Shown here: positions 1,532-28,505 of the stretch, one piece after another
Numbering within the stretch: the first letter of the stretch is position 1
Layout of the letters: each line of letters opens with the position of its first letter
Origin: a virus
Virus genome (UHGV): UHGV-0159523
DNA: 32,971 nt
Strand: one strand, 5' to 3'
The notes under the pieces: generated by a model
The model's input: only the letters and a program-made list of their open reading frames with translations
What the model was told of the DNA's origin: nothing
The model's database searches: none
Position numbers and translations under genes: made by a program

Positions 1532-2904
1532 TGCACTGGCACCTTCAGAGGGATCACCGGCACAAAGCCGGGATGCGTAATGGCATTACGCCGGATAATG
1601 TCCGCGTCACGCGCCGCGTTATCAAACCAGGTAGCCGCCAGCACCAGCGCGGGTAAAACCTCATCCGGTGTGCGCTGAATGATCCGTGCAGACTGTTCAA
1701 GGCGCGTGTTGATATCCGCATTCAGATCTGCTTTCACCCGGCGCAGCGCCAGAAACAGCGCATCACTGGTTGTACGGGACAACTCCTTATCAATTGCCGT
1801 ATTCAGTGTGTCGCGAATGTCAGTCAGTTCTTCCCACGTCGGCAGGTCAACCGTGTTTTTCACCGCCGGTACATTGTTTAGTGCCGGATGCGTGACGGAA
1901 GGCCAGCCAGTGCTCTGCGCGGGTGTTGTTGCCTGCCCCACTGCGGAATTCTGCATCACCGCGGAAATTGTTGGCGCAGGCAATCGGGTGACGGCATACG
2001 CCGCTTCGCTGATTGCGGTCGTACGAAGGGTGCTGGCAACCACGTTACGCTGCTGCGTCGCCGTGGCGGTGGTTTTACTGTCCGTTTTCCAGACGCCGCG
2101 CGGTTGCAGATCGCTGCCGAGGCTGACACCGGAAAGCGTTTTGATCATGGTGACCAGGTCGCTGGCGTTACCATAAAGGCGTTTCCCGGTCCGCCACATT
2201 TTCTGCACCTGCTCAACGAAATTTTTGCCTGACGATGGCGGCGGCAGAAGTACCGAGATATCCCCCTGCAACAGCCTGGCGGCATCCGATACGGCAGAAT
2301 CCACCACTTTCATCGCATCAGAAACATACCCCAGCATCATGCTGGCATTACCGATAACGTCGTTCTGCACGAAATCCGCCACACCATCGATACTGAAACC
2401 GCTGAAGCTGTCACTGATGCAGTCATCCAGTGCAGAACAGGATGACATCAGCGTCTGCGCCGTCGCCGCACCTGATGTGGGGTAAGAGAGTTCTCCTGCT
2501 TCGACAAACTTCAGGTCAAAGCGGACAATACGCCCTTCACTTTTCGATGTGCTGACCCGAACTTCCCCGTCAACACAGACTTTCAGCTCACCATATGTCG
2601 GGTGGACAAGCGTGCCGGGACCGGGTTTATTCAGCGCTTCAATCAGGCGATCGCGCTGGTCAAAGCAGTCATCTCCCACCACATAAGCTGTGATGGACGG
2701 GCGGAAAGTGACTTTTCCCAGATCTTCGGTATAGGGCTTGTCGCGGTTCGGGTATTCATGTGTTTCCACACGGCGACCAGTTCCCGCACTTTCTTCTTCA
2801 ACCTTAAACGGCACGCTGCGAAATGACGCATCCTGAAGCCTGTCTTTCCACGTCATATAAGTCCCATATTTATTATCAGTAGTAATATTTACTGGTAATG
2901 CCAT
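1528..2904 (-). CDS. Mu gpN-like DNA circulation protein (tail module); alternative start at 2856
   Basis: N-terminal motif WKDRLQDASFRSVPFKVEEESAGTGRR typical of the DNA-circulation N-terminal family; the first 16 codons lie in the AT-rich island, so ATG at 2854-2856 (MTWKDRL) may be the true start. Confidence 0.7.
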
Positions 2905-2966
2905 AATTTGTAGTGGTAGCCATTACCATTTGTAACTATATAAATTATTAGCATTAAGGTGATAAC

Positions 2967-3413
2967 ATGAAGAAATTATTAAAATGGATTTTATATATTT
3001 TCATCGGGTTGGTGATTATTGGATATTTTGCAGGCAATAACGATAAAGGCTCTAATTCTTCATACTCATCCGATACGGAAGCTGCGGCACCGCAAAAAGA
3101 AATCTACAACACTACTGCTCGACAGCTGTTTAAAGAGTATGAAGAAAATGAAGTCGCTACCGATGAACAGTTAAAAGGTAAATTAATCGCCGTTAGAGGT
3201 ATCGTACAATCCATTGATAAGGACTTTACTGACTCTATAATTATTAAATTCAGAACTGAAAATGAATTCATGCCAGCAAGAATGGAGATGCAAGACTCTG
3301 AAAAATCAACAGCTGCTGCTCTTAAAAAAGGAGAACAAGTAACTGTTATTTGCGAAAAAATGTCCAGAATTGTCGGCTCCCCATCAGGCCGAAATTGCGT
3401 GTTCGCACAGTAA
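2967..3413 (+). CDS. Moron: N-terminally anchored or secreted small protein with OB-fold-like domain (tRNA_anti-like pattern), 148 aa
   Basis: AT-rich island on the opposite strand inside the tail operon; SD AAGGTGA 4 nt before ATG; N-terminal hydrophobic segment LLKWILYIFIGLVIIGYFA; C-terminal KGKLIAVRGIV...KKGEQVTVICE pattern. Confidence 0.55.
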   Translation: MKKLLKWILYIFIGLVIIGYFAGNNDKGSNSSYSSDTEAAAPQKEIYNTTARQLFKEYEENEVATDEQLKGKLIAVRGIVQSIDKDFTDSIIIKFRTENEFMPARMEMQDSEKSTAAALKKGEQVTVICEKMSRIVGSPSGRNCVFAQ

Positions 3414-3416
3414 GTT

Positions 3417-3447
3417 CAGGGGGGGGCGGCCCTCCCTGTTCGTCTTT
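3417..3447 (+). terminator. GC-rich hairpin between convergent moron and tape-measure genes (likely terminator)
   Basis: cagggggggg-cggc-cctccctg stem (about 9 bp, one G-U) followed by ttcgtcttt; lies between stop codons at 3413 and 3446. Confidence 0.3.
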
Positions 3448-5278
3448 ACCTAAATCTGGTGTACCCAACATCGTGATTAATATCAATGCCACTGGAACGT
3501 GTTTCCGTAACCCGCATACCTGGTGGCATATTCATAAATGAAACCTTGATCTCGCCATCAACTTTTGGCGCGATAGCTTTGTTAATCATAAAGGGATTCG
3601 AGCCTGTGGCATCGGAGGCGTTGTTTGCCTGAGCCGGATCCACCACCGGATAAGGAGTGTATCCCCGTGGCGGTATTCCCGTCCCATAAGCATCATAAGC
3701 ACCCGCGCCCCACTGCGCCGAGTTAATGGCATCGACCGTGTCACCGGAACTGTCGGTAAACCATTCAATAATCGGCTTCAGCTTATCCCACATATCCTGA
3801 AACCACTTAACAACCGGTCCCCAGTTATTGATCACCATCCCCAGCGGCGACCAGGCAAAAACCTTCTTCAGAAGTTCCCAACCTGCCTCAAAATAAGGAC
3901 CAATGGTTTCCCAGAGCTTCTTGAAATAAGGTCCGACAACATCCCAGTTAGTGATAATTAATCCCGCAGCCAGAGCAATCGCCGTCGCAATCATGCCAAT
4001 CGGCGTCATCGACATAATCCTGCTGACAATACTGATGGCACTGCCCACGCCCATCAATCCCAGTTTCAGAATCGCAAGACCGGCAGCAAGCCCGACGACG
4101 CCGCGAATAACCCGGGGATTTTCATCCGCAAACTTCGTGAATTTCTCCCCCAACTCCCCCAGCCATTGTGTGATATTTTTAGCGTCACCAGAAAATGCGC
4201 CGCCAATAGCCGCAAGGCCGTTAGTTGCGGTCCCTGTCATTGCCTCCCACAGGTTGGACAGCGTACCAAGCTGTGCCTGAACACGTTTATTCAGGCTGGC
4301 CTGTTTATTCATCTTCTGCTGGATCTGATCGTAGCCATCCTTTCCTTTATCGATTAGTGCATTGACCACCTGAAGGGTTTCGGCATCATCACCAAATATT
4401 GCCTTAAGTACACCTGTTCGCTTAACGTCGGTCAGTTTTCGCAGCTTTGCCAGTTGCCTGAACATGTTATCAAGACCGCCAAAACTTCCTTTGCCGTCAG
4501 TAAAATCGAGCTGTATCCCGAGTTTCTGGCGGGCCATAACTTTATTAACGTCCCTGATTTTCTTAACGCTTAATCCGGACTGGATAACTTTTCGCAGGGC
4601 ATTACCTGCCGACTCCCCGTTCATCCCCATCTGATCCATCATGACGCTGATGGGGGCAAGGCTCTGTGCAGCCTGAAGACCATCCTTGTTCACCATCTTC
4701 AGAACAGAACTGGTTTTAGTGAAGAAGGACAACATGTTGGTATCGTCAACGCCCAGATAAAACGCCTTCTGGATAGTGTCGAACAGCCCCATCATGTCTT
4801 CTGACGCCGTTCCGGTAGCATCCTGCATCTTTGCAGCAAACTCAGCAGCCGCTTCCGGTGTTTTTTTCAGTTGTACCGCAAGATAAGCTGTCGCTTTACC
4901 CACACCACCCAGAATGTTTTCTGCCGGGATCCCCTGACGCACCAGCATCTGCATCATGTTCTGGAAATCAGCCGTTGTACCAGGTAGCTGGTTACCCAGG
5001 CCAATAGCCAGTTTATTGATGTCCTGAAAGCTCTTTCCAACCTCGCCGTTCGCATCCATCATGGCGACTTTCAGCCCGGTGGCGGCGTTTTCCTGATCGG
5101 CATAAGATTTCAGGGAAAGCGTCAGACCCGCTGCCAGTCCGCCACCAAGCGCCAGCCCACCCTGTGACGCTTCTTCCGCCTGGCGTTTAAATCCCCGGAT
5201 TTTCTTTTGCATTTTCGACAGCGCGGGAGAAAGCCTGTCGACACCGGTGATCAACGCCTTAAGCTCAAATTCAGCCAT
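3446..5278 (-). CDS. Tail tape measure protein, 610 aa
   Basis: Long Ala/Gly/Leu-rich low-complexity protein with hydrophobic central segments, located directly downstream of tail assembly chaperone and frameshift ORFs. Confidence 0.8.
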   Translation of the reverse strand: MAEFELKALITGVDRLSPALSKMQKKIRGFKRQAEEASQGGLALGGGLAAGLTLSLKSYADQENAATGLKVAMMDANGEVGKSFQDINKLAIGLGNQLPGTTADFQNMMQMLVRQGIPAENILGGVGKATAYLAVQLKKTPEAAAEFAAKMQDATGTASEDMMGLFDTIQKAFYLGVDDTNMLSFFTKTSSVLKMVNKDGLQAAQSLAPISVMMDQMGMNGESAGNALRKVIQSGLSVKKIRDVNKVMARQKLGIQLDFTDGKGSFGGLDNMFRQLAKLRKLTDVKRTGVLKAIFGDDAETLQVVNALIDKGKDGYDQIQQKMNKQASLNKRVQAQLGTLSNLWEAMTGTATNGLAAIGGAFSGDAKNITQWLGELGEKFTKFADENPRVIRGVVGLAAGLAILKLGLMGVGSAISIVSRIMSMTPIGMIATAIALAAGLIITNWDVVGPYFKKLWETIGPYFEAGWELLKKVFAWSPLGMVINNWGPVVKWFQDMWDKLKPIIEWFTDSSGDTVDAINSAQWGAGAYDAYGTGIPPRGYTPYPVVDPAQANNASDATGSNPFMINKAIAPKVDGEIKVSFMNMPPGMRVTETRSSGIDINHDVGYTRFR

Positions 5279-23244: not shown

Positions 23245-23738
23245 TAAGCCCCCACGTAATTCCCTGACAGATACCATTCATCACCCGATACAGCGCGCTT
23301 GCTGCTTTTCCGTAAGCACCGCTCTCGACGCGCCAGAAAGTTGTTTCGTTCTGGCTGGGAGTGACTTTCACGGAATGCCGCCATCCACACCGTTGCAGCA
23401 CGACGGTATAAGCCCCTGGACTCCAGCTCTTCAGCCTGGCGGGTCAGGCACAAAATCACCCGGGGATCGTTAGTGCCGACATAGAAATTGCGCACAGGTC
23501 TGGTTTCACGAACAGATTGTGGTTCCGGCTCCTGCGCTCTCTCAGTCAGGCGCGGGAAATGTCTGCGTGTATCTCCTTCACAACGGTGAGCCACACGCCC
23601 ACTCTGACGTAACTTGCTTGCTGACTGCAGAACGCGCTGCCGTGAGTAACCAGCAAAAGCATCTGCAATGTCTCCGGAAGTACAGCCCGGATGGGCTTCA
23701 ATGAATTTCTGAACGTCATTCAAAAGACTCATGATCAC
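23244..23738 (-). CDS. Hypothetical early protein with PerC-like C-terminal motif, 164 aa
   Basis: ORF track; C-terminal LYRRAATVWMAAFRESH...RRERC resembles the PerC-family pattern; assignment tentative. Confidence 0.4.
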   Translation of the reverse strand: MIMSLLNDVQKFIEAHPGCTSGDIADAFAGYSRQRVLQSASKLRQSGRVAHRCEGDTRRHFPRLTERAQEPEPQSVRETRPVRNFYVGTNDPRVILCLTRQAEELESRGLYRRAATVWMAAFRESHSQPERNNFLARRERCLRKSSKRAVSGDEWYLSGNYVGA

Positions 23739-24676
23739 CCCCTGAATCCTGCCGGGATCTGGCTGTAGTCCACGTTGCCGTAACTGGCTTTGAAGTACGG
23801 GTCTTCACGTTTTTCTGTGTGCGTGCTGACGGACGGCGATAAGCGCAGGGAAAGCTCATCCCATTTTTCCCGCAACTTCGACGGGCTGAGCACGTTACGG
23901 CACCAGAACGGATCGCGGCTGACGCGGCTGTACATCTCGCAGATTTGTTTGTGAGTACGACCATCCTGCACACACATCAGGCGAATTTCGTTTGCCCATG
24001 CTGTCCAGTTCGGTTCTTTGGGACGAACCACCTCGCCGTCACATTCGGCGGCCTGCTCGTACAGGGCAATGATTTTTTTCCAGAGCCACTGTGCGCAGGT
24101 CAAATCATCCTGCGTTCCCCACTGGCGCTTTTTAGGGCTGAATACAACCGCATCAGGATGGCGAGTTAAAAAATCCTGTTCAGCCGTCTGCGTGTCCGGT
24201 TGCGAAGCGTCCGGACGAGAAGGTTTTTTATCTGACGGATCATGTTTTGATTTTACTGACGGATCCCCGCCAGATTCTGACGGGTGAAAACCCGCTTTTT
24301 TGCCAGATTTCGACGCATCAAATTTTGACGGGTCAGATTTTGATGCGTCAGATTTTGACGGGTCAGAATCTGACAGTTGAGAAAATGCCGCTGCCTGAAG
24401 CTTCGCAACGTTAAGCTGATAAACATTCGACGCATTGCGGTTACCCTGGCGACGCGCCTTACGCGTTAACCAGCCTTCTGCTTCCAGCCGTGCGATAGCC
24501 GTTCTGACGGTACTCATCCCCGCGCCAATCTGGCGGGCAATGGTTTCAATTGATGGCCAGCACACACCTTCGTCATTACTGAAATCAGCCAAGCGGGCCA
24601 TAATTGCCACGCTGGATAATTTCATGCCTGACGCTGCGCAACCATCCCATACATAGCCGGTTAATTTAGTGCTCAT
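23735..24676 (-). CDS. Replication initiator, O-like (N-terminal wHTH, repeat linker, C-terminal domain), 313 aa
   Basis: N-terminal HTH (SIETIARQIGAGMSTVRTAIARLEAEGWL); internal peptide repeats SKSDASKSDPSKFDASKSG encoded by a DNA iteron array; SD AGAGG before ATG. Confidence 0.65.
   Translation of the reverse strand: MSTKLTGYVWDGCAASGMKLSSVAIMARLADFSNDEGVCWPSIETIARQIGAGMSTVRTAIARLEAEGWLTRKARRQGNRNASNVYQLNVAKLQAAAFSQLSDSDPSKSDASKSDPSKFDASKSGKKAGFHPSESGGDPSVKSKHDPSDKKPSRPDASQPDTQTAEQDFLTRHPDAVVFSPKKRQWGTQDDLTCAQWLWKKIIALYEQAAECDGEVVRPKEPNWTAWANEIRLMCVQDGRTHKQICEMYSRVSRDPFWCRNVLSPSKLREKWDELSLRLSPSVSTHTEKREDPYFKASYGNVDYSQIPAGFRG
24226..24379. repeat. Iteron array (putative origin of replication) inside the O-like gene
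   Basis: About eight copies of a 15-bp repeat (consensus agattttgacgggtc); four perfectly tandem between 24320 and 24379. Confidence 0.6.
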
Positions 24677-25024: not shown

Positions 25025-25572
25025 GCGTTAGTTTCTCCACAGTCACGACACGCCACGGCGCCCGGAGCTGCACACTCGCGGGCGTCACTCTTTTCTGGAG
25101 CGCAAAAGATTTTGTAGACCAGTGCTGCATGCTCCTGGAGCTTCGAAATTGACAGATACAACTCATCATTAATTGCTGTCTGCTCGTGTGGCTCCACTAC
25201 CCCATCTTCGATTGCCGAACGAATCTGCTTTGAGTAACTCCCGATCTGTTCGATGACTTCCAGCAGGCGCTGGTTTATATCGGCGTTCTCTACTTCCTCA
25301 ATTTCAGGAAGCGATACGAACACCCCACCAGCAGACTGTGCGACAGCATCCGCAATGTAGTGAGTGCCAGCTGCGCGCTGTAAAACCATTGCCCATCCCA
25401 GCGGGAAAATCTGATCGCCATCGGCACGAAGGCGGTTAAATAATGCGTTCTCTGTTACATCCAGCCAGTCAGCAGCTTCAGCGTAACCACCCGGCAACGC
25501 CGCGATAGTTTTTCTGACAGCTTTCACGTACCACTCAGGCTGTTTTTCTACTTTCCAGTGATGCTTACCCAC
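25021..25572 (-). CDS. Early regulatory protein candidate (CII-position), about 183 aa from GTG 25572; alternative ATG starts at 25650/25683
   Basis: GTG at 25570-25572 has strong SD GAGGAG 6 nt upstream and avoids overlap with Cro-like stop at 25601. Confidence 0.4.
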
Positions 25573-25600
25573 GGTTAACTCCTCGTTTCTGTGGTTACGT

Positions 25601-25864
25601 TTACGCAACTGAACCGCTAACTTTTGAATAGCACTCTGGTAATCCATCATTTGGATTTGGATAAATATCAGGACGCAGCTCATGGGGGGTTACGGACCAG
25701 TTCCCCAGCTCACAAAGTTGTAAAACTCGTTCCGACGGGACTTGATTGTTAATTACCCAATTAGCGACAGATTGAGTAGATTTAAAACCAAAGCGACGAG
25801 CTACTTCAGATAAAGACTTTCCCGCAGCCTTTACTGCTTTCTCGGTGTAGTTTTGAGATGACAT
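25601..25864 (-). CDS. Cro-like HTH repressor, 87 aa
   Basis: HTH KSLSEVARRFGFKSTQSVANWV; SD AGGAG; divergent from CI across a short operator region. Confidence 0.65.
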   Translation of the reverse strand: MSSQNYTEKAVKAAGKSLSEVARRFGFKSTQSVANWVINNQVPSERVLQLCELGNWSVTPHELRPDIYPNPNDGLPECYSKVSGSVA

Positions 25865-25896
25865 ATCTTTCTCCTCTGAAATCCAGAGGGGATAAT

Positions 25897-25934
25897 GCTA
25901 CTTAAAGTAGCGAATTGCAACTACTTAAAATAGA
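25897..25934. promoter_or_regulatory. OR-like operators: two copies of a 15-bp palindrome (gctacttaaagtagc and actacttaaaataga)
   Basis: First copy is a perfect odd-length palindrome; second is a near copy 23 bp away centre to centre; both lie in the 71-bp gap between divergent cro-like and cI starts. Confidence 0.55.
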
Positions 25935-25935
25935 A

Positions 25936-26676
25936 ATGACGAGCGTATGTGATGTGAGTAATCTTCTACCTATGGTAGAAGAACAGAAGTATCCAGATTT
26001 CGCCAAGAGACTAAACGAGTTAATGACAAACAAGGGAATTTCTGTCACCCAACTCAAAAGTCTTGTTGGCGTTACATATGAAATGGCGCGGCGATACACA
26101 ATCGGCGCAGCGAAGCCTCGTGCCTCTGTCATGAATAAACTTGCGTTGGCTCTGGGGGTATCGGCTTCATATTTAGAATATGGTGTTGGCGAGAGAGAAG
26201 GATGTAAGGAAATGGCAAGCATCCCCAATCCAACAAAACCCGACGTATACAGGATAGAAGTTTTAGATCTTAGCGTTAGCGCAGGACCTGGAACCTATAT
26301 GCTTTCAGACTATGTTGATGTGCTCTACGCCATTGAGTTCACAACAGAACATGCCCGTTCTCTTTTCGGTAACCGTTCTCAGGATGATATTAAGGTTATG
26401 ACTGTAAATGGCGATAGTATGTCCCCTACTCTCGTTTCCGGAGATCGACTGTTTGTCGACATTTCTGTTCGTCACTTCCAGACTGATGGAATTTACTCTT
26501 TCGTTTACGGTAAGACTTTTCATGTTAAACGTCTTCAAATGCAAGGTGACAAGCTAGCCGTTCTTTCGGATAACCCTGCCTATGAGAAATGGTACATCGA
26601 TGAAAAATCGCAGGATCAGCTTTATGTAATGGGCAAGGCGTTGATTCATGAGTCAATAAAATACAATCGGTTATAG
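25936..26676 (+). CDS. CI-like prophage repressor with C-terminal S24 (LexA-like) peptidase domain
   Basis: N-terminal HTH (FAKRLNELMTNKGISVTQLKSLVGVTYEMARRY); C-terminal VNGDSMSPTL and FHVKRL Ser/Lys dyad; ATG at 25936 may be leaderless, TTG at 25915 is the track start. Confidence 0.85.
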   Translation: MTSVCDVSNLLPMVEEQKYPDFAKRLNELMTNKGISVTQLKSLVGVTYEMARRYTIGAAKPRASVMNKLALALGVSASYLEYGVGEREGCKEMASIPNPTKPDVYRIEVLDLSVSAGPGTYMLSDYVDVLYAIEFTTEHARSLFGNRSQDDIKVMTVNGDSMSPTLVSGDRLFVDISVRHFQTDGIYSFVYGKTFHVKRLQMQGDKLAVLSDNPAYEKWYIDEKSQDQLYVMGKALIHESIKYNRL

Positions 26677-26691
26677 TTCTAAGGGCATATA

Positions 26692-27039
26692 ATGGCTAGT
26701 GAGCAGGGATTCGAAAAGATTAACATGGATATGTTGGTCTCTTATTTCTCAGAAAAGAATATATATCTAAAATGTACACTATGTGGACACGACAGATTGA
26801 CTGTGCCTCAAGTCAGCGCGAATGTGGGCATGCCATGTACTATGAAACTTGGTAGTTATGTGAATGTTTTTACTGAAAAAAGCATTTATTCTGATACTGC
26901 TAACCAGTATTACTTTTCACTAATATGCAACAATTGTGGAAATGAAATTCATATAAATGCGTTTTCAGTTTTGAACTGGGTAAATGAAAAGTTCCCAGCA
27001 AAAACGGAAGATGAAAAAAATGCCGACGCCGCAAAATAA
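26692..27039 (+). CDS. Small protein with two CxxC pairs (zinc-ribbon-like), 115 aa
   Basis: CTLCGH and CNNCGN about 50 residues apart; AT-rich; immediately downstream of cI on the same strand (rexA position). Confidence 0.5.
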   Translation: MASEQGFEKINMDMLVSYFSEKNIYLKCTLCGHDRLTVPQVSANVGMPCTMKLGSYVNVFTEKSIYSDTANQYYFSLICNNCGNEIHINAFSVLNWVNEKFPAKTEDEKNADAAK

Positions 27040-27391
27040 TGTAGTACCATTTAATAGTGAACTTCCCACAATTAGAAGACACGGTGGAGATGGCGGAGGT
27101 GATGACATGCTTGAAGCCCGAGTCGCTAAGTTAGAAGCGAATGTTGAGGATATAAAAACAAATCTCGCAGAGATGAGAGCTGACATTCGTGATTTGCGAA
27201 ACGCTCTCTCCGACACCCGACGCGATGTCGCTGTTATCCTTCAAAAACAAATAGATATAGATGAAAAGTTGTCAAAAAAACCTAGCCTAAGTGAAGTCAA
27301 CAGCGCTATTTCATCAGCCGTAAATAAACAGATCGCATGGACTGTTGCAACAGGCTTGGCGATTTTAGGTCTCGCCAAATTTATGTTTTGA
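27011..27391 (+). CDS. Coiled-coil protein with single C-terminal TM anchor (XhlA-like architecture); start 27011 or 27020
   Basis: Heptad-like charged region EARVAKLEANVEDIKTNLAEMRADIRDLRNAL followed by IAWTVATGLAILGLAKFMF at the extreme C-terminus; overlaps upstream gene end. Confidence 0.5.
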   Translation: MKKMPTPQNNVVPFNSELPTIRRHGGDGGGDDMLEARVAKLEANVEDIKTNLAEMRADIRDLRNALSDTRRDVAVILQKQIDIDEKLSKKPSLSEVNSAISSAVNKQIAWTVATGLAILGLAKFMF

Positions 27392-27696
27392 TAAGTTTTT
27401 GACTATGACCTGCCCTAGTTTTCTTACTATCGAGGCTAAATCACACAATCCATTGAGTAGTAAATTCCCTACCGTTTTACACTTAGCCTCCAAAAACTCA
27501 ACAATACTCTCATGATTGACTTCTCCCCACTTGATGATTAACTAGATCACATACTGATCTCAGCCACAATGAAACAATCCATCACGTTCTACAACTCAGC
27601 TAACTTCACAATATAATTTTTTGATCATAGCCCCAAAATATTTTACCTGTAAATTCAATGAATTAATTTCAAAATGCGTTTTTATGCCCTTAACTT

Positions 27697-27733
27697 CTAC
27701 TTTTTGTAGTTGATTTTTGCAACTTTAAGTAGC
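27697..27733. promoter_or_regulatory. OL-like operators: two copies related to the OR palindrome (ctactttttgtag, gcaactttaagtagc)
   Basis: Second site matches OR 15-mer at 13/15; first shares CTACTT...GTAG arms; 23-bp spacing as at OR; additional half-site aagtagc at 27774-27780. Confidence 0.45.
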
Positions 27734-27861
27734 AATATCATTTTACCGACAACGAACAGGCAGGACGCCCACGAAGTAGCCGCCTGGGGCATATGAAGTC
27801 CAGGATGATTCGTTGAGTCATGTTGTGCCACTAGGCACTCATGTTAAAGCAGGTGTATGAA

Positions 27862-28137
27862 ATGAAAGTCCAGATTTTAAACAATAACTGTGAAGTCGTT
27901 TGGTCATACGACATAGCCGCCCCTGTAGATCAGAGCGGCGATAGCTGGACCAATGGGAAACATCAGATTATGGCTGGAGTTGTGTTCTCTTTACGCCGTG
28001 CTTTGGAACAGGCTGAAGTATTTCCATCAGACCCTGAATGGAAATGGCCTTTTTCTATTTGTCCAAATTCGGAGAGCACATTTCAGAAAATTGGTCAGAA
28101 AGTCGCACTCGAAGAGCATCAGCCAACTGTTTCCTGA
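27862..28137 (+). CDS. Hypothetical early-left protein, 92 aa from ATG 27862
   Basis: SD AGGTG 7 nt upstream of ATG 27862; first ORF downstream of OL-like region; 3' end overlaps a convergent ORF. Confidence 0.35.
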   Translation: MKVQILNNNCEVVWSYDIAAPVDQSGDSWTNGKHQIMAGVVFSLRRALEQAEVFPSDPEWKWPFSICPNSESTFQKIGQKVALEEHQPTVS

Positions 28138-28300
28138 TTTTTTCAGGTAACTCGTCGGCATCGCAGAAACAACAACGCTCGATCATGTTGAAAGCCGATT
28201 CGTAGAACTGTTTCTGCTGAGTGTCGCTGAGACAGGAAAAGAGCGACGTTACGATGATTTTATTAATTGCATTATCAAGTTCTTTTTCATCAAAAGTCAT
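28055..28300 (-). CDS. Hypothetical small protein, 81 aa, antisense to the early-left operon
   Basis: SD AAGGA 7 nt upstream of ATG 28298-28300; Cys cluster ERCCFCDADE; overlaps the 3' end of 27862..28137 by 83 nt. Confidence 0.4.
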   Translation of the reverse strand: MTFDEKELDNAINKIIVTSLFSCLSDTQQKQFYESAFNMIERCCFCDADELPEKIRKQLADALRVRLSDQFSEMCSPNLDK

Positions 28301-28505
28301 TTGATTTTCCTTTTATGTATACGGGCTTAAAAGGATACCACCGAGCCTGAAGTGGTGAAAAGACAGGCACATAACAGCTAAGTATTTTCAACCAAAGAGA
28401 ATCCTTAGCGTTGTGGTGAATGCGGCTCAGCGCACGCGGGTTAAGGTTGAGGCTGACAGTCGACCTTCTGTGGATACCCACCCGTCTGGTGTGCAACCTT
28501 CGCCA

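Follow-up and report, generated by a model that had tools for sequence, protein, structure and literature searches.

UHGV virus genome UHGV-0159523, an Escherichia coli prophage analysed over a whole stretch of 32,971 nucleotides (nt; the window), carries directly behind its cI-type repressor gene two overlapping open reading frames (ORFs), ORF1 and ORF2, which stand where phage lambda has rexA and rexB. ORF1 encodes a predicted Cys4 zinc ribbon, and ORF2 a predicted coiled-coil membrane protein anchored by its tail. The best reading of the pair is a sensor and a membrane effector that would exclude phages, and most likely it protects the lysogen against other phages. The module would then be a prophage exclusion module beside the repressor, with a RexAB-like position and two-part layout. 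For decades RexAB has served as the textbook case of prophage exclusion, and what other lambdoid phages carry in the same slot is largely uncharted.

The position of the module is set by the operators that surround it. The 33-kb window contains just four sites with the 13-mer pattern CWACTTWWWRTAG, 0.01 being expected (five strand-matches, the site at 25898 being palindromic). Two of these operators lie between the cro-like gene and cI and the other two about 300 nt downstream of ORF2, with a spacing of 23 nt in the right (OR) and left (OL) operator regions alike. Moreover, positions 25891-25947 and 27683-27739 constitute a 57-nt inverted repeat that aligns base for base after reverse complement. 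Promoters of sigma-70 type were assigned by eye at both regions: PR on the minus strand (TTGCAA-17-CATTAT) and PL, rightward on the plus strand (TTGATT-17-CAATAT, 27712-27740), each with an operator within its spacer. Since the operators flank cI-ORF1-ORF2 on both sides, the order is OR/PR/PRM, cI, ORF1, ORF2, OL/PL, where PRM is the cI maintenance promoter. As read from these signals, the layout follows that of lambda, ORF1 and ORF2 standing in for rexA and rexB. The features of the region are as follows, the RefSeq start being taken for cI.

25601-25864, minus strand: cro-like gene, divergent from cI (YdaS_toxin/Cro-type helix-turn-helix (HTH), E 4.6e-11; phrog_35)
25891-25947, no strand assigned: OR region, with operators CTACTTAAAGTAG (25898-25910) and CTACTTAAAATAG (25921-25933)
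25972-26676, plus strand: cI-type maintenance repressor, HTH and S24 autopeptidase (Peptidase_S24, E 8.4e-17; HTH_3, E 2e-5; phrog_4)
26692-27039, plus strand: ORF1, 115 amino acids (phrog_4293)
27011-27391, plus strand: ORF2, 126 amino acids from the RefSeq start (phrog_3556)
27392-27682, no strand assigned: AT-rich non-coding spacer from ORF2 to OL (GC 0.344)
27683-27740, plus strand: OL/PL region, with operators CTACTTTTTGTAG (27697-27709) and CAACTTTAAGTAG (27720-27732)

The initial annotation had described two overlapping plus-strand ORFs after cI, in AT-rich DNA and at the rexAB position. Their coordinates were confirmed, the GC content of the module being 0.391 (0.356 in ORF1, 0.506 in the whole window), and the position is sustained both by the operator map, which sets the pair between cI and OL/PL, and by a relative in phage HK544 that replaces rexAB. 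ORF1 starts 15 nt after the cI stop codon, preceded by an AAGGG Shine-Dalgarno sequence. Candidate starts of ORF2 are 26984 (longest frame), 27011 (RefSeq, 126 amino acids) and 27020 (ATG, 123 amino acids), the last with the best Shine-Dalgarno spacing (GGAAG at 27006-27010); as the start is 27011 or 27020, the true overlap with ORF1 is 20-29 nt. A terminator scan detected no terminator-like site between cI and ORF1, so read-through from the cI promoter is very likely, and cI, ORF1 and ORF2 would be co-transcribed from PRM in this prophage. The length of the frames is weak evidence for genes, since about 3% of shuffles of the 700-nt stretch contain an open frame of at least 115 codons; a spurious-ORF reading was ruled out by paired conserved homologues of both proteins in many genera.

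Both genes belong to families that travel together. Among 100 surveyed loci with an ORF2 relative, every complete one has a small gene directly upstream of the relative, usually with an overlap of 1-32 nt. At least three families, unrelated to one another, supply these partners: a beta-rich protein some 145 amino acids long (phrog_5893, 54 loci), the zinc ribbon of ORF1 (32 loci, including two divergent singletons) and a protein of about 95 amino acids with an 'FGYSSFG' motif (phrog_4231, 9 loci), besides a few others. Conversely, an ORF2-family gene is found immediately 3' of the ORF1 relative in 57 of the 61 loci retrieved with an ORF1 profile. Among the four exceptions, at least two (L145 and L151) encode the glycine-linker, coiled-coil and membrane-helix architecture below the hidden Markov model threshold, and one contig is too short. 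The ORF1-ORF2 pair is therefore close to obligatory. Every family member seen is annotated as hypothetical. A tandem pair of ORF2-like genes with no soluble partner is present in Pantoea/Erwinia (L015, 3552-4291; L016, 3622-4318; L080), downstream of a protein of about 290 amino acids that by eye resembles an AraC-type regulator; this may be a non-prophage context.

Related pairs occur behind different repressors, and the module adjoins the genetic switch in all contexts examined. In phage HK544, the depositors' annotation gives the order lambda-type cI, c104 (93 amino acids), c103 (183 amino acids, the ORF2 relative), Timm, oL/pL and N, the two-gene relative taking the place of rexAB behind lambda cI. 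The layout is the same behind the cI of VT1-Sakai, the Stx1 prophage of E. coli O157:H7, where a pRM terminator is annotated after the relative. This relative is strongly expressed without induction, and mass spectrometry of O157:H7 grown in rumen fluid found its partner, ECs2991 (PMC3936929). In the P22-like phage UPF_BP1, Mnt is followed by proteins of 94 and 149 amino acids located between mnt and gene 16, the position where P22 carries orf59a and sieA. In a Rac-like Klebsiella prophage the pair stands behind a short HTH repressor gene opposite ydaS/ydaT, in a Buttiauxella element it is convergent with cI, and in a metagenomic element its neighbours include genes of the M78-peptidase and PyocinActivator types. 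Considering that (i) four kinds of maintenance repressor precede the module and a relative is expressed in the lysogen, (ii) the family holds the RexAB and SieA positions, and (iii) it lies in AT-rich DNA, as other accessory genes do, and its parts are turned over rapidly by recombination, the genomic record points to a function of the module in conflict between phages.

The first protein was initially described as having two CxxC pairs. They were found (C28xxC31 and C79xxC82), and all four cysteines are invariant in alignments of 16, 30 and 45 divergent family members, alongside which only the initiator Met is invariant, plus V93 in the alignment of 30. The AlphaFold2 model has a predicted local distance difference test (pLDDT) score of 80.6. 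Two CxxC knuckles are present, each running into a beta-hairpin. With its conserved cysteines, ORF1 is thus a predicted Cys4 zinc ribbon. No signal peptide was found in ORF1, which would locate the protein in the cytoplasm, and the Cys4 site points the same way. ORF1 matches no Pfam or NCBIfam family, its PHROG family (phrog_4293) is of 'unknown function', and a PDB sequence search retrieved Fur-type zinc sites only. The family grew with the search, from 4 clusters at first to 29 with a profile and 313 with an exhaustive profile (clusters at 50% identity), of which 79 are below E 1e-10; nearly all are standalone proteins of about 90-180 amino acids. A profile match of 711 amino acids (P0198) was discarded as a repeated treble-clef/CapR protein in which only the cysteine spacing agrees. 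We propose that ORF1 is a specificity or sensor subunit.

ORF2 is built of four consecutive parts, the last two of which fall in a segment that is exchanged among relatives.

27011-27082, plus strand: residues 1-24, disordered N-terminal peptide MKKMPTPQNNVVPFNSELPTIRRH, which includes NNVVPFNSELP (pLDDT <50)
27083-27106, plus strand: residues 25-32, glycine-rich linker GGDGGGDD, present in essentially all family members
27107-27331, plus strand: residues 33-107, coiled coil in heptad register, opening with MLEARVAKLE
27119-27136, plus strand: R37-V-A-K-L-E42, an R-hxxh-E motif in g-a-x-x-d-e register
27332-27388, plus strand: residues 108-126, C-terminal membrane helix IAWTVATGLAILGLAKFMF (Kyte-Doolittle mean 1.7 over 19 residues)
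27115-27420, plus strand: exchangeable cassette of coiled coil and membrane helix, delimited by comparing the window with L111, L112 and L113 by blastn

A charged heptad coiled coil followed by a single transmembrane helix at the extreme C-terminus had been noted in ORF2 initially, and both stood. In the best heptad register, residues 33-100 are hydrophobic at 14 of the 19 a/d positions, the charge is balanced (13 K+R, 13 D+E), and residues 108-126 are the sole hydrophobic segment. AlphaFold2 leaves residues 1-29 disordered and models a helix from 30 to 88 (pLDDT 85-94), a break at KKPS and a second helix from 93 to 125. ORF2 is accordingly predicted to be a tail-anchored coiled-coil membrane protein. 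Among 25 divergent relatives, the only invariant columns are R37 and E42; together with V38 and L41, which occupy a and d of the best heptad phase, they match exactly Arg(g)-h(a)-x-x-h(d)-Glu(e), the R-hxxh-E trimerization motif defined in PMC3653964, which according to the same paper is not fully specific for trimers. A PDB sequence search with ORF2 retrieved generic coiled coils, mostly from proteins known to be trimeric; the nearest solved sequences are Lpp, fibritin, the P22 tail needle, reovirus sigma-1 and stalks of trimeric autotransporters, all of them trimers. Given the invariant in-register motif and these nearest sequences, ORF2 most likely forms a parallel trimer. No Pfam or NCBIfam family matches ORF2 above threshold, and phrog_3556 is of 'unknown function'. 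The stalk varies from 63 to 257 residues across relatives. In Photorhabdus (L008, 3890-4777; L012, 3932-4564) tandem repeats stretch it to 166-257 residues, and these long-stalk relatives keep the N-terminal motif and the membrane helix.

The two ends of ORF2 have different histories. The type of its N-terminal peptide follows the partner family: beside zinc-ribbon partners it has the motif ..NV(V/I)PF..(D/E)LP or (F/Y)P, and beside 'FGYSSFG' partners YYE.P.L.E.L. At least five types of membrane helix occur in ORF2 relatives, each with several partner families, and they shuffle independently. The window and L111-L113 are homologous over cI, ORF1 and the initial 35-38 codons of ORF2; the homology breaks at 27114-27123, exactly at MLEARV, and returns just past the stop codon near 27420. 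From these breakpoints, ORF1 and the N-terminal peptide are inherited together, and the coil with its membrane helix is a separate cassette. The joint travel of ORF1 and the peptide is the main evidence for docking of one on the other, and residues 1-24 of ORF2 are proposed as the docking site for ORF1.

The slot itself varies as well. Strain 181.1 has a cI 96.8% identical to that of the window, followed by a phrog_4293 protein of 105 amino acids and a coiled-coil/membrane-helix protein of 210 amino acids; past cI, homology to the window is regained only at OL. The module of the window is present in 17 of the 206 E. coli genomes with this cI type. Three genomes with a cI of 92-94% identity were inspected, and in each a ParA-family gene occupies the slot instead of the module. 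As judged from these comparisons, the slot after cI is a cargo hotspot. The ParA-family gene is single and of about 360 amino acids (phrog_164; L167, 3376-4452; L168, 3376-4452; L169, 3440-4525); one of the two alleles tested has a match, limited to the P-loop, with the PADLOC candidate PDC-M28B, and the gene may be another cargo expressed in the lysogen.

From its architecture, the module looks like a membrane effector to which a cytoplasmic specificity subunit is tethered, and we infer docking of ORF1, trimerization and an N-in topology of ORF2, membrane damage and any anti-phage role along the following lines. ORF2 would be inserted tail-first in the inner membrane, its parallel trimeric coiled-coil stalk, about 9 nm long, reaching into the cytoplasm. 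At the membrane-distal end of the stalk, the glycine linker would bear the short peptide on which ORF1 docks. ORF1, as a cytoplasmic exchangeable specificity subunit, would keep ORF2 inactive or report a phage-derived cue. Infection would alter the ORF1-ORF2 contact, and the membrane helices of ORF2 would then assemble a lesion of the XhlA or holin kind, with collapse of the membrane potential before the invading phage matures. Hints of such an effector are the resemblance to XhlA, a lysis-linked protein and the only family similarity to recur among the ORF2 relatives (6 of 25 members, best E 1.1e-6, with the two reported bit scores well below threshold), the weak PHROG 'hemolysin' and 'holin' matches and the invariance of the R-hxxh-E motif. 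This scheme, an accessory ('moron') module read through from cI with an abortive, membrane-damaging action on superinfecting phages, is put forward tentatively, at somewhat less than an even chance. A little more tentative is the proposal that the module represents an undescribed class of modular prophage immunity, and is its founding example: a tail-anchored trimeric effector would carry swappable sensors on a tethered peptide, and units of sensor plus peptide would recombine at MLEARV independently of the effector cassettes. With about the same reserve, one may picture a mix-and-match exclusion that replaces RexAB or SieA in lambdoid, P22-like, Rac-like and Stx prophages, its sensors being zinc ribbons, beta-rich proteins and others. 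To our knowledge, such a plug-in organization of sensor and effector has not been described previously.

Comparison with known systems places the module closest to RexA/RexB in arrangement. Both lie inside the immunity region, on the cI strand, downstream of cI and before OL/PL; both consist of two genes, cytoplasmic protein first and membrane protein second, and both are presumed to be expressed from the repressor transcript. The proteins are unrelated in sequence, as initially proposed: no Rex family was matched in Pfam (E ≤1) or in PADLOC, RexB has four membrane helices whereas ORF2 bears a single one, at the C-terminal end of a long coiled coil, and RexA has about 279 amino acids against the 115 of the ORF1 zinc ribbon. 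XhlA (PF10779), a lysis-associated membrane protein of PBSX, resembles ORF2 in being short, with an N-terminal coiled coil and a single C-terminal membrane helix. However, XhlA genes belong to lysis cassettes of Gram-positive phages and have no docking peptide, glycine linker or obligate upstream partner, whereas the neighbours of the module are cI and OL/PL with no lysis cassette, and the scores seen in the ORF2 family are below the gathering threshold of 34.7 bits. SieA, annotated as superinfection exclusion in the P22 record, is a membrane protein, and the related pair of UPF_BP1 lies in the same mnt-gene 16 interval as sieA and orf59a; the module differs in architecture and in having no similarity to exclusion families in a PHROG scan. 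The pairs gp30/31 of mycobacteriophages Sbash and Butters are reportedly prophage-expressed defence pairs of a cytoplasmic and a membrane protein near the repressor, RexAB-like in logic. They are like the module in that layout, by description only, hosts and sequences being unrelated. BstA of prophage BTP1 is said to be a single cytoplasmic, DNA-associated protein in a variable slot beside the repressor gene; the slot is alike, but BstA acts as a single protein, and the window proteins match no PADLOC model.

Several observations weigh against an exclusion function. The initial annotation had proposed a sensor and a membrane effector analogous in logic to RexAB; no homology to defence proteins was found in Pfam, NCBIfam, PHROGs, PADLOC or PDB. 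Pfam and NCBIfam gave nothing above threshold for the module proteins, and the PADLOC 2023 models (PADLOC-DB 2.0) gave coiled-coil noise only (LmuB, JetC and DruC, E 1e-4 to 2e-2); a PADLOC scan of the partner variants was negative as well. The literature searched contained no functional paper on the family and no phenotype for any of its members. The relative known to be expressed is only 37% identical and has a partner of a different family, and variability of the slot is by itself no proof of defence. A terminator scan and RNA folding revealed no intrinsic terminator 3' of ORF2. As to the effector, window ORF2 has no match with XhlA even at E ≤1, its membrane helix is only moderately hydrophobic (1.7), and three single-pass helices alone cannot make a pore. 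Many ORF2 relatives end in KK(P), which together with the positive-inside rule disfavours a simple N-in tail anchor.

The same data can be read in other ways. The pair might exclude superinfecting phages with no death of the cell, through a complex under the inner membrane that blocks DNA translocation or the function of ejection proteins as SieA of P22 does, ORF1 recognizing the incoming machinery. The relatives in the orf59a/sieA slot of a P22-like phage, the predicted membrane anchor of ORF2, stalks of 63 to 257 residues that might tune reach and the expression of a relative in the lysogen all fit this explanation. We nevertheless consider it unlikely, because hardly any of ORF2 would be on the periplasmic side, the partners are cytoplasmic with no signal peptide, and the PHROG scan gave no similarity to annotated exclusion proteins. 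An addiction pair of toxin-antitoxin type that stabilizes the prophage, with ORF2 as membrane toxin and ORF1 as labile antidote encoded upstream, would account for the gene order, in which the small cytoplasmic protein leads, for the overlap and the probable coupling in translation, for the strict pairing and for the weak XhlA/holin-like similarity of ORF2. It is, however, rather improbable: unrelated partner families share one effector cassette and a flexible linker parts the docking peptide from the effector, both of which exchangeable sensors explain better than dedicated antidotes do, and plasmid-style addiction would be of little use to a prophage that cI controls.

A role that serves the phage itself, as an XhlA-like lysis accessory or antiholin or as a membrane-tethered regulator of induction or lysis timing, deserves mention because XhlA is the commonest Pfam match in the ORF2 family (6 of 25 members, best E 1.1e-6), although two relatives score only 21.9 and 19.3 bits, and because ORF2 has weak matches with PHROG 'hemolysin' and 'holin' families and the genetic switch adjoins the module in all contexts examined. 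Spanin, tape-measure and tail-fibre readings, also suggested by PHROG matches, were rejected (E >0.04, wrong location). Against such a role, which we regard as improbable to a slightly greater degree than addiction, the module lies in the immunity region, outside the lysis cassette, and a relative is highly expressed without induction; besides, where cI is the same or 92-94% identical, prophages are found that lack the module or carry a different allele, so it is not a core function. Least probable of all, in our estimate, is a lysogenic conversion unrelated to phages, in which the envelope physiology of the host or its tolerance of stress would change, as has been suggested for bor and lom of lambda. 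A membrane protein expressed in the lysogen from AT-rich accessory DNA, and the presence of ECs2991 in O157:H7 grown in rumen fluid (PMC3936929), would suit it, but such a role hardly accounts for the speed at which partner and effector cassettes are exchanged or for a docking peptide that co-varies with the partner.

Should the sensor-effector pair prove to be a defence system, it would add a compact new system, some 700 bp long and unusual in its plug-in architecture. It may then help to explain differences in phage susceptibility among lysogens, pathogens included, and would offer a simple model for the recombination of sensors and membrane effectors. The spread of the family gives an idea of its reach, since it extends from lambda cI (HK544) and the Stx1 prophage of O157:H7 to P22-like, Rac-like and SfV-like prophages of many enterobacteria.

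Around the module, further elements were noted. Scans for an internal promoter or terminator gave chance-level counts, and such elements were dismissed; an Rfam scan of 25500-28500 found no RNA family. In the spacer, two promoter-like sites face each other (27588-27617, plus strand; 27653-27624, minus strand), each with 10 of 12 consensus positions; the minus-strand site would give an RNA antisense to the module, and the total of promoter-like sites is at chance level. Downstream of PL, about 65-150 nt of the stretch 27749-27915 are 84-100% identical in SfV, SfII, SfIV and ST64B and in phages of Klebsiella, Citrobacter, Yersinia and Pantoea. The stretch has no annotated feature in most records and is negative in Rfam; a GC-rich hairpin lies in its non-coding part (27749-27840), which is a possible leader or nutL-like element. 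Beyond it, two convergent ORFs (27841-28137, plus strand; 28055-28300, minus strand) overlap by 83 nt and match phrog_3195 (E 6e-70) and phrog_3311 (E 1e-55); the RefSeq record of strain GB089 has the plus-strand one only.

The remainder of the prophage has early-left genes of the SfV/CPS-53 kind (yfdP, yfdQ, yfdR and yfdT), and cI faces the cro-like gene and a cII/YmfL-like gene. In the copy of strain GB089, the integrase adjoins tRNA-Thr and proA. The same copy (L001) has, at 2667-3779, an IS421 (IS4-like) insertion among its late-early genes as well as several frameshifted or partial genes, and may be defective. In the window, a replication-initiator-like gene on the minus strand (23735-24676) contains, at 24304-24367, 4.3 tandem copies of the 15-nt unit CAGATTTTGACGGGT, which look like origin iterons inside an O-type gene, as in lambda.
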